NCBI RefSeq assembly: GCF_003334785.1
Contig: NZ_QOWV01000001.1
DNA: 64,000 nucleotides
Strand: one strand, 5' to 3'
Source of the DNA: Escherichia coli
GTDB lineage: Bacteria > Pseudomonadota > Gammaproteobacteria > Enterobacterales > Enterobacteriaceae
In this document: piece by piece, positions 2,957 to 11,616 of the stretch
Layout: every line of letters begins with the position of its first letter
How positions within the stretch are numbered: position 1 is the stretch's first letter
Translations under genes and position numbers: made by a program
Notes under the pieces: generated by a model
Database searches by the model: none
What the model was told of the DNA's origin: nothing
Seen by the model: the letters and a program-made list of their open reading frames with translations, nothing else

Positions 2957-3202
2957 ACTCACCCCTTTTCCGACAGGCAGCCACAGGCTGAACAGGACTC
3001 CGATGGTGAAGTAAAGTTAACTTTTAAGCAACAGCTGGCAAAAAAATGACACCAGAAGCAGCGAAGCGGCAGGATATTGCATAAACTTTAAAAACTTTAC
3101 CAACTTACGGTTTCTTTAAGTTTGTGTGTGCGTTATTAATCACCAAACTTATCATACGGCGATATAACGTATTTTTTTTGAATGGATACTCGGGTGGCAT
3201 TT

Positions 3203-9898: not shown

Positions 9899-10435
9899 AT
9901 GCGTCGCGCTAACGATCCGCAACGGCGAGAAAAAATTATCCAGGCCACGCTGGAGGCGGTGAAACTTTACGGAATACATGCTGTTACGCACCGCAAAATT
10001 GCTACCCTTGCCGGGGTACCGTTGGGATCGATGACCTACTATTTTTCAGGAATTGATGAGTTGTTACTGGAGGCGTTCAGCAGTTTTACTGAGATCATGT
10101 CCCGGCAATATCAGGCATTTTTTAGCGATGTTAGTGATGCTCCGGGCGCATGCCAGGCTATCACCGATATGATCTACAGCTCACAGGTTGCAACGCCGGA
10201 TAACATGGAGCTGATGTACCAGCTCTACGCGCTGGCTAGCCGAAAACCGCTATTAAAAACGGTAATGCAAAACTGGATGCAGCGCAGTCAGCAAACGCTC
10301 GAACAATGGTTTGAACCCGGAACCGCCCGCGCGCTTGATGCGTTTATTGAGGGGATGACGCTGCATTTTGTCACCGACCGTAAGCCGCTATCGCGCGAGG
10401 AGATTTTGAGGATGGTTGAGAGGGTTGCAGGGTAG
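9899..10435 (+). CDS. rcdA: TetR-family transcriptional regulator RcdA (YbjK)
   Basis: ORF trimmed to [15 protein letters not shown] (178 aa); N-terminal TetR-type HTH; recognised by recall. Confidence 0.85.
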
Positions 10436-10451
10436 TAGATAAGTTTTAGAT

Positions 10452-10465
10452 AACAAAAAACCCAT
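10452..10465. repeat. Left copy of 14-bp direct repeat (putative attL core)
   Basis: aacaaaaaacccat, identical to 22039-22052; lies 16 bp after the rcdA stop. Confidence 0.55.
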
Positions 10466-10480
10466 TTATGTAAACGGGTT
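10453..10480 (-). terminator. Hairpin plus U-tract downstream of int, rebuilt at the attL junction
   Basis: Minus strand reads aacccgtttacataaatgggtt followed by ttttttgtt; about 9-bp stem with one G-U pair. Confidence 0.45.
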
Positions 10481-10484
10481 AATG

Positions 10485-10521
10485 AAAACAATAAGTTAGG
10501 TTAAAAACAATAAGTTAGGTT
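10485..10521. repeat. Tandem 18-bp direct repeat (2 copies, 19-bp period) between attL core and int
   Basis: aaaacaataagttaggtt at 10485-10502 and 10504-10521; candidate arm-type Int/accessory-factor binding sites. Confidence 0.5.
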
Positions 10522-10539
10522 GGTGGTCAGTGGTGGTTA

Positions 10540-11592
10540 TTACGGGGTAATGCCAACCGCTGCCGCCACTTTGTCGCCACTTGGCAGCGTTGCCAGAGGA
10601 TTGAAACGGAGCGCCGTTTCTAGATGATCCGGTGCCAGATGTGCGTAACGCATAGTCATTTTTATATCGTGGTGTCCGAGAATTTTTTGTAAGGCCAGAA
10701 TGTTTCCACCCGACATCATGAAGTGCGCCGCAAACGTATGGCGCAGAACGTGTGTGAGTTGACCGCGAGGGAGCACGATAGACGTTTTTTCCATCACGGA
10801 TAAAAATTGAAAATAGCAGTCTGTGAAGAAATTGAACCCATCAAGCGCCATGATCTCTTCGTAAAGCTCTTTACTGATAGGGATGCTTCTGTTTTTCTTC
10901 CCCTTCGTTCTGACAAAGGTAATTCGGTATTTGGTCACCTGTGAGCGGGTAAGATTTACGGCTTCACGCCAGCGTGCGCCTGTGCTTAAGCATATCTTAA
11001 CTACCAGTGCCAGAATTGGGTCCTGACGTTTGCAATCAGCCAGCAATTCAACAATCTGCTCATGGGTAAGCCATGCCATCTCTTTTTCTGCGATGGTGAA
11101 TTTTCGCATGTTCTCCAGTGGGTTCGGATACGACCATTCGCCCAGACGGGATAGTTCGCTAAAAACACTACTTAGATAGCTTTGCTCCAGGTTAATGGTG
11201 ACCGGGCTTGCTCCTTTCTTCCATTTCTCGCTGAAGTAGATCTCGCCTGTCAGGCGTTTATCTCGATAGTGGGCAAACATTTTAGAGGTGAGATCGGTTG
11301 CAAGAGGATTGCCCAGAGCGTCAACCATCAACAGCAATTTGTCATAGACATGCTGCCCAGCTGTCAGAGATTTACCATGTAGTTTGAACCATAGCTCAAC
11401 CACGTCTTTCAGTGTTCGACGATCCACTGATTCACCCAGCCAGGGCTTTGCTTCGGTTTCTTCCATCGTGTGGCGCTCAAAAGCCAGTGCTTCGCCTTTG
11501 GTGGCGAATTGTTTACGCACACGACGCCCACTTCGTCCGGCGGGGTAACATTCGCAAAGCCATTTCCCTGTGGTTAGTTTTCGTACTGCCAT
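10540..11592 (-). CDS. int: Phage tyrosine integrase
   Basis: 350-aa ORF; C-terminal catalytic region with RHTFAAH and HxxR...Y (LGHHDIKMTMRYAHL) typical of tyrosine recombinases; position next to the att repeat. Confidence 0.9.
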   Translation of the reverse strand: MAVRKLTTGKWLCECYPAGRSGRRVRKQFATKGEALAFERHTMEETEAKPWLGESVDRRTLKDVVELWFKLHGKSLTAGQHVYDKLLLMVDALGNPLATDLTSKMFAHYRDKRLTGEIYFSEKWKKGASPVTINLEQSYLSSVFSELSRLGEWSYPNPLENMRKFTIAEKEMAWLTHEQIVELLADCKRQDPILALVVKICLSTGARWREAVNLTRSQVTKYRITFVRTKGKKNRSIPISKELYEEIMALDGFNFFTDCYFQFLSVMEKTSIVLPRGQLTHVLRHTFAAHFMMSGGNILALQKILGHHDIKMTMRYAHLAPDHLETALRFNPLATLPSGDKVAAAVGITP

Positions 11593-11596
11593 AAAA

Positions 11597-11616
11597 AGCC
11601 CTCATATCAGAGGGCT
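11597..11616 (-). promoter_or_regulatory. Stem-loop immediately upstream of the int start codon; its 3' arm contains the int Shine-Dalgarno
   Basis: Minus strand reads AGCCCTC-TGATAT-GAGGGCT-TTTT-ATG(int); 7-bp GC-rich stem, with GAGGG 6 nt upstream of the ATG. Confidence 0.5.

Follow-up and report, generated by a model that had tools for sequence, protein, structure and literature searches.

Two identical, directly repeated 18-bp sequences lie between the attachment core and the integrase gene of a defective prophage in the Escherichia coli chromosome. Judged by consensus match and family comparison, they are probably a homogenised pair of IHF-type boxes (AAACAATAAGTTA, near the IHF consensus WATCAANNNNTTR) in the P′ arm of a 186-type attachment site. 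The parts of this site and of the element that bear on it are given below, with positions counted in the window, that is, the whole 64-kb stretch of DNA analysed.

10452-10465, plus strand: attL core, AACAAAAAACCCAT; the match with the empty K-12 site stops at 10465, and an imperfect extension covers 10440-10465.
10459-10480, minus strand: terminator-like hairpin with 9 pairs and the tail TTTTGTTATC, the intrinsic terminator of the int (lysogenic) operon; its T-run is the A6 tract of the core.
10485-10502, plus strand: repeat copy 1, holding IHF-type box 1 (AAACAATAAGTTA) at 10486-10498.
10504-10521, plus strand: repeat copy 2, holding IHF-type box 2 (AAACAATAAGTTA) at 10505-10517, the positional equivalent of the box in the 186 IHF footprint.
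10522-10557, plus strand: poorly conserved spacer of 36 bp from box 2 to the arm doublet, including the int stop codon.
10540-11592, minus strand: gene for a tyrosine integrase of the 186 type, 350 aa (PHROG: integrase).
10561-10582, plus strand: P′ arm-type Int sites, the doublet TGCCGCCACTT TGTCGCCACTT, matching tgccGCCActt, inside the 3′ coding end of int.
14064-14285, plus strand: gene for a Cox/Apl-like excisionase-repressor, 73 aa (phrog_575), the presumed recombination directionality factor.
21965-21986, plus strand: P arm-type Int sites, the doublet TGCCGCCATTT TGTCGCCATCG, matching tgccGCCActt, just past the ogr-like gene.
22004-22016, minus strand: single predicted IHF-consensus match of the P arm, AATCATGATGTTA, with 1 mismatch, located similarly to the left IHF footprint in 186.
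22039-22052, plus strand: attR core, AACAAAAAACCCAT, followed by the intact ybjL terminator and then ybjL.

The repeat unit, AAAACAATAAGTTAGGTT, is present twice without a mismatch, the copies being separated by a lone A. Tandem Repeats Finder returned a period of 19, 1.9 copies, 100% matches, and a score of 74. In a pattern search of the 64-kb window that allowed up to three mismatches, just these two copies were found, against an expectation of 0.06, and two or more copies occurred in 0 of 100 shuffles. All three approaches, sequence reading included, agree with the sequence-only reading, which had reported two 18-bp copies 19 bp apart. The attR-side copies for which that reading had proposed to search were not found, and no further copy was present elsewhere in the window at the same threshold. 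A promoter scan of the repeats detected no promoter-like site, and a single-copy allele, sought with a synthetic single-copy query, was absent from 5,426 complete E. coli genomes.

The repeat starts 19 bp past the att core and ends 18 bp ahead of the int stop codon. Its context had been described as the int 3′ flank, about 20 bp from the core, and this proved correct once the core was taken from comparison with the empty K-12 site and int was placed on the minus strand. The plus-strand gene ending at 10435 is rcdA (ybjK), and the prophage remnant sits between rcdA and ybjL. In insertion-free genomes, such as the K-12 derivative XL1-Blue, the match to the window stops at 10465 and is followed by the ybjL terminator and ybjL. 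The 14-mer AACAAAAAACCCAT, which the empty K-12 site also has, recurs at 22039-22052 and is followed there by the same K-12 sequence. The core, perfect over 14 bp and imperfect over 26 bp, is common to attL, attR, and the empty bacterial site, and it marks exactly where the homology changes over. Because the core stands at both ends and the K-12 sequence continues after the second, the inserted element comprises 10466-22052, or 11,587 bp. Klebsiella phage 4LV2017 has this core as its annotated attL. In E. coli HS, the same insertion site is occupied by a prophage that starts right after rcdA and was named PhiECO1 by Nilsson et al. (2011; PMC3448106). These results indicate that the 18-bp repeat lies in a real attL, in its int-proximal (P′) arm. 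The only tRNA gene of the window, that for tRNA-Ser (GGA) at 59947-60034 on the minus strand, is unrelated to this att site.

At the junction, the core corresponds to the T-run plus a half-stem of the ybjL intrinsic terminator (window 10452-10484 and 22039-22100; 3150-3200 in locus L001). The same T-run closes the ybjL terminator in the empty site, and attR preserves that terminator intact. On the minus strand of attL, AACCCGTTTACATAAATGGGTT followed by TTTTGTT forms the terminator of the int operon, which is the sole stable RNA structure found by RNA folding in the int 3′ flank. The phage core thus resembles one half of a host terminator, and a replacement half brought by the phage creates a new int-operon terminator at attL.

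Within the element, the genes run in the order int, a PD-Lambda-1 gene, the CI repressor, the Cox-like excisionase-repressor, small early genes, an orphan methyltransferase, and a 1,034-aa open reading frame (ORF), after which the tail genes U and D and an Ogr-type zinc-finger activator adjoining attR make up the right end. The 186/P2 gene order combined with a large internal deletion identifies the element as a prophage remnant, an 11.6-kb member of the 186/P2-like, PhiECO1-type group. The arrangement ogr/B, attP, int, cI, cox/apl is kept, and the uninterrupted ogr-attP-int junction is seen in Klebsiella phage KP12, whose attP reads ogr, core, boxes, int. In the 1,034-aa ORF (16969-20073, plus strand), residues 2-434 are the N-terminal half of replication protein A and residues 435-1034 are a C-terminal tape measure segment. 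An in-frame internal deletion has removed about 20 kb, comprising all of the head genes and most of the tail genes. Complete relatives with the same int and att arm are the Klebsiella phages KP12 and 4LV2017, the prophage record vB_EcoM-813R9, and ESSI2_ev040 (about 74% identity).

Between int and cI, the cargo gene at 11675-13351 (minus strand) matches PADLOC models for PD-Lambda-1 anti-phage defence (E = 2e-120); its product is a DUF4041 domain protein in RefSeq and a "chromosome segregation ATPase" in phage records. This predicted PD-Lambda-1 gene may be the reason that the defective prophage is kept. In the early region, an orphan Dam-like DNA methyltransferase gene at 16115-16972 (plus strand) matches the PADLOC oMTase model (E = 1.6e-110). 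The Cox-like protein shares 64% identity with ev040 Cox, and its sequence has essentially nothing in common with that of 186 Apl. The switch region between cI and cox (13935-14015) contains two copies of TTGGGTACTT, 59 bp apart, together with the palindrome GTACCCAATTGGGTAC; these elements share no motif with the att repeats and are probably CI operators.

Some relatives carry additional genes between the arm doublet and int. In two loci at the same attB (L088, 2040-2345, from E. coli ESBL 15, and L114), a minus-strand cargo ORF in this interval encodes a highly repetitive, Gly/Pro-rich product with GGPGP-like units. In the PhiECO1 prophage of E. coli HS (L089, 1787-2056) and in strain FACU 2024 (L148, 1447-1716), int is shorter (343 aa) and is separated from the arm doublet by a 90-aa hypothetical gene. 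The placement of this gene resembles that of orf69 of phage 186, and the arm doublet there is non-coding yet unchanged.

The integrase of the window is 56% identical to 186 Int over 334 aa, has the N-terminal residues W11, E14, and Y16 as in 186, adjoins the att site, and is transcribed toward it. In P2-like phages, the core is flanked on either side by two or more direct arm repeats, with the consensus tgTGGaCa for Int proteins of the P2 type and tgccGCCActt for those of the 186 type (Nilsson et al., PMC3448106); the GenBank record of 186 gives its arm consensus as YAYCGCCAYTY. One tgccGCCActt doublet in direct orientation was found in each arm of the element, and the P′ doublet lies 40 bp further in than the 18-bp repeat. 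The doublets were present in every relative examined, with GCCA cores invariant in all 22 representatives used for the information analysis below, and they persist where a cargo gene parts them from int, which argues that they are conserved at the DNA level and not as a by-product of coding. By their match to the published consensus, the GCCACTT doublets are the integrase arm sites. The 18-mer has no likeness to tgccGCCActt and no copy on the second arm, as determined in the window at up to three mismatches; lacking both, it is not an Int arm site.

Each copy of the 18-mer contains AAACAATAAGTTA, which differs from the IHF consensus WATCAANNNNTTR (as used in, e.g., PMC10380432) at a single position, with A for T at position 3; one-mismatch matches to this consensus occur at 1.2 per kb in the window. 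For comparison across the family, a scan of one genome per species yielded 58 Int relatives across Enterobacterales (49-100% amino-acid identity). An IMG/VR scan with the Int protein yielded 80 loci, nearly all 100% identical and ending 3 nt past the int stop, and was thus uninformative for the att arm. The P′ arms were anchored on the arm doublet, not on any IHF match, which gave 45 distinct arms, that of 186 among them. All 45 contain two boxes 19-20 bp apart, the second ending 45-46 bp before the arm doublet. The pair was found across at least four unrelated cores, namely the rcdA-ybjL type terminator, a second terminator (presumably the ryeB/sdsR sRNA locus), tRNA-Ile (as in 186), and tmRNA. 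It was also kept where cargo genes part int from the arm.

The information content of the P′ arm was calculated from 22 representatives less than 85% identical to each other, with the following mean values.

Consensus-specified box positions: 1.49 bits
N4 positions of the boxes: 0.67 bits
Six bases between the boxes: 0.63 bits
40-bp spacer: 0.45 bits
Arm doublet: 1.53 bits

Conservation within the boxes is therefore confined to the positions that the consensus specifies (1.49 vs 0.67 bits), except that the third N4 position (A in 18-19 of 22) shows higher conservation than expected. The CA and TT positions are near-invariant, and the last position of box 1 is a purine in 22 of 22. Box 1 has 0, 1, or 2 mismatches to the consensus in 4, 10, and 8 representatives, respectively; for box 2 the corresponding numbers are 8, 7, and 6, and one further representative has 4 mismatches. 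In the close E. coli/Klebsiella clade, variants differ solely in the last four bases of the 18-mer or by A to G at the R position. Part of this conservation is inherited from the common ancestry of the relatives; the contrast with the flanking columns still argues for constraint. Thus, when compared with related att regions as the sequence-only reading had suggested, the repeat region emerges as a conserved, constrained part of the arm. The boxes are kept despite differing excisionases, which points to a host factor common to all of these bacteria.

The positions of the boxes were compared with the annotated attP of phage 186. Box 2 of 186 (TATCATTGACATA, 21070-21082) lies inside the feature annotated as "IHF DNase I footprint location" (21057-21086), the one IHF footprint annotated on this side, which covers box 1 partly. 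In both systems the order is core, IHF site, Apl operators (five in 186) or the equivalent interval, and Int arm sites, at nearly equal distances, with 19-20 bp from the core to the box pair and 46 bp from the end of box 2 to the last arm doublet. The similarity extends to the integrases noted above, which share an arm-site consensus. The differences are that 186 has another core and attB (tRNA-Ile, as opposed to the intergenic rcdA-ybjL terminator here), an excisionase unrelated in sequence, an orf69 between arm and int that the window element lacks, and boxes that are 20 bp apart with 9 of 18 bases alike, whereas those of the window are identical. The interval that the Apl operators occupy in 186 corresponds to the spacer at 10522-10557, in which GGTGGT occurs twice with 10-bp spacing, and by this positional analogy the spacer is the likely binding region of the Cox/Apl-type excisionase.

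The perfect identity of the two copies is a feature of the lineage. The two 18-mers are identical at 18 of 18 positions in the window, and those of most relatives at 8-12 of 18 (median 11). The sister clade has AAAACAATGACTTGCAAG and TAATCAATAAGTTAGGTT, and the clade of the window has the 5′ part of box 1 joined to the 3′ part of box 2 at both positions, as slippage or conversion between boxes would produce. These results indicate that two older boxes of differing sequence were homogenised by a recent event specific to this lineage (slippage or gene conversion). In the P′ arm of Rahnella spp., about 60-100 bp past the int stop, AAAACAATCACTTA occurs twice in two loci (L107 and L110) and AAAACAATAACTTA occurs twice in a third (L144), so that one N4 base is C in both boxes in the former and A in both in the latter. 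In the Rahnella clade, the paired boxes have evolved in concert independently, and the two boxes appear interchangeable.

Four other explanations of the repeats were weighed against the IHF-type box pair. Direct repeats between core and int stand at a frequent position of arm-type sites, and the sequence-only reading had accordingly offered "integrase or accessory factors" as the ligands. For Int itself this is extremely improbable, given that the enzyme is of the 186 type and that its arm consensus, present as doublets on both arms, is another motif, whereas the 18-mer has no P-arm copy. The accessory-factor half of the proposal held up, since the boxes fit the IHF consensus and lie where IHF was footprinted in 186. 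A further accessory factor to consider is the phage's own Cox/Apl-like excisionase, or recombination directionality factor (RDF). P2 Cox and 186 Apl bind direct repeats in the P′ arm, between the core and the arm sites; the element encodes an intact Cox-like protein; and the junction of copies 1 and 2, TTAAAAACA, agrees with the P2 cox-box TTAAA(G/C)NCA at 8 of 9 positions. We nevertheless regard binding of this protein to the repeats as unlikely. Known RDF operators in the P2/186 family lie 10-11 bp apart and not 19, so that the repeat does not have the form of such an operator array, and the Apl sites of 186 fill the interval equivalent to 10518-10557 and not the boxes. RDFs of this family recognise one motif both in the arm and in the cI-cox switch region, but no 6-mer of the repeat region recurs in 13960-14070 on either strand. 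Moreover, the boxes are conserved among phages with unrelated RDFs, 186 included, and the cox-box-like junction is missing in relatives. Readings by eye of the junction as a P2 cox-box or as a Fis site were not retained, since relatives do not conserve the bases that match.

The boxes might instead bind another conserved factor, such as another nucleoid protein or a second surface of Int, or act as RNA in the int 3′ UTR. Conserved A's beyond those of the IHF consensus occur in the family consensus, AAAWCARnnAnTTR, and paired boxes are unusual for IHF; set against this, the 186 footprint was attributed to IHF and the repeats have no RNA structure (folding z-score 0.09), and we consider these possibilities quite improbable. 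The RNA role in particular is rejected because, in the int 3′ flank, the terminator alone folds. An Rfam scan of 10200-10800 found no family, the two sub-threshold CRISPR-DR hits being chance matches outside the repeat. It is very improbable, finally, that the repeat is a neutral product of replication slippage with no function of its own, or mere spacer DNA that fixes the distance from core to arm. Slippage or conversion does occur, as the lineage-specific perfect identity and the concerted evolution in two clades show, and the core-to-arm distance is conserved. However, both boxes are older than their homogenisation and are kept where the copies have 8-12 of 18 bases alike, and the conservation is specific to positions (CA, TT, R) and not to length alone.

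The site was also compared with its closest relatives and with better-known intasomes. The PhiECO1-type (Fels-2 group) prophages of E. coli HS, ATCC 8739, and CFT073 use the same integration site (PMC3448106), and their attL is near-identical to that of the window, both boxes included. They differ from the window element in size (about 31-35 kb, against an 11.6-kb deletion remnant), in the 18-mers (15 of 18 identical in the HS variant, 18 of 18 in the window), and in the PD-Lambda-1 gene that the window element has between int and cI. P2 belongs to the same phage family and likewise has a heterobivalent Int, IHF, and Cox bound between the core and the int-proximal arm. Its attP contains Int arm repeats of the tgTGGaCa type, one IHF site, and six cox-boxes, and it differs from the present site in this arm consensus (P2 type vs 186 type) and in the cox-box spacing of 10-11 bp as opposed to a period of 19 bp. 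In lambda, the H′ site resembles the arrangement here in that an IHF consensus facing away from the core, some 20-30 bp off, is followed by direct-repeat Int arm sites, and this architecture is required for both attP and attL. Unlike here, lambda has one H′ site and no pair spaced by 19 bp, carries the sites for Xis and Fis on the opposite (P) arm, and uses an unrelated Int arm consensus.

In the mechanism that we propose, host IHF would bind the boxes of the repeat and bend the P′ arm sharply. With the arm so bent, Int molecules whose N-terminal domains sit on the GCCACTT arm doublet, about 45 bp out, would be able to bring their catalytic domains to the core. The form of the excisive complex at attL would be set jointly by this bend and by the Cox-like excisionase bound in the spacer between boxes and doublet. 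IHF sites 19 bp apart would have overlapping footprints, which makes simultaneous occupancy doubtful; the pair may be occupied alternately, in integration and excision, or together. It is possible, but on present comparisons doubtful, that 186-type attachment sites carry two adjacent IHF-type boxes at a fixed distance of 19-20 bp that are both selected and mutually homogenising, a P′-arm architecture undescribed for 186, P2, and lambda.

The earlier suggestion that the recombination apparatus at attL is intact applies to the site, in which every expected part is kept (core, boxes, spacer, arm doublet, int, and Cox-like gene) with a sequence essentially identical to that of complete relatives; it does not extend to the prophage itself, which is a deletion remnant. 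An 11.6-kb defective prophage thus still has a complete-looking excision module, and this matters because the element carries a PD-Lambda-1 anti-phage gene and could still be mobilised or lost.

Overall, the feature is most likely of an ordinary, well-understood kind, the host-factor part of a 186-type attL in the already described PhiECO1-type lineage. The annotation of this attL is corrected in that the GCCACTT doublets serve as the Int arm sites, while the tandem repeat that catches the eye is most likely the part for the host factor (IHF-type). The modest new point, drawn from sequence comparison, is that 186-type P′ arms carry a conserved IHF-type box pair of fixed spacing that evolves in concert. 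This family-wide pair would be a small, testable addition to the model of the 186/P2 intasome.
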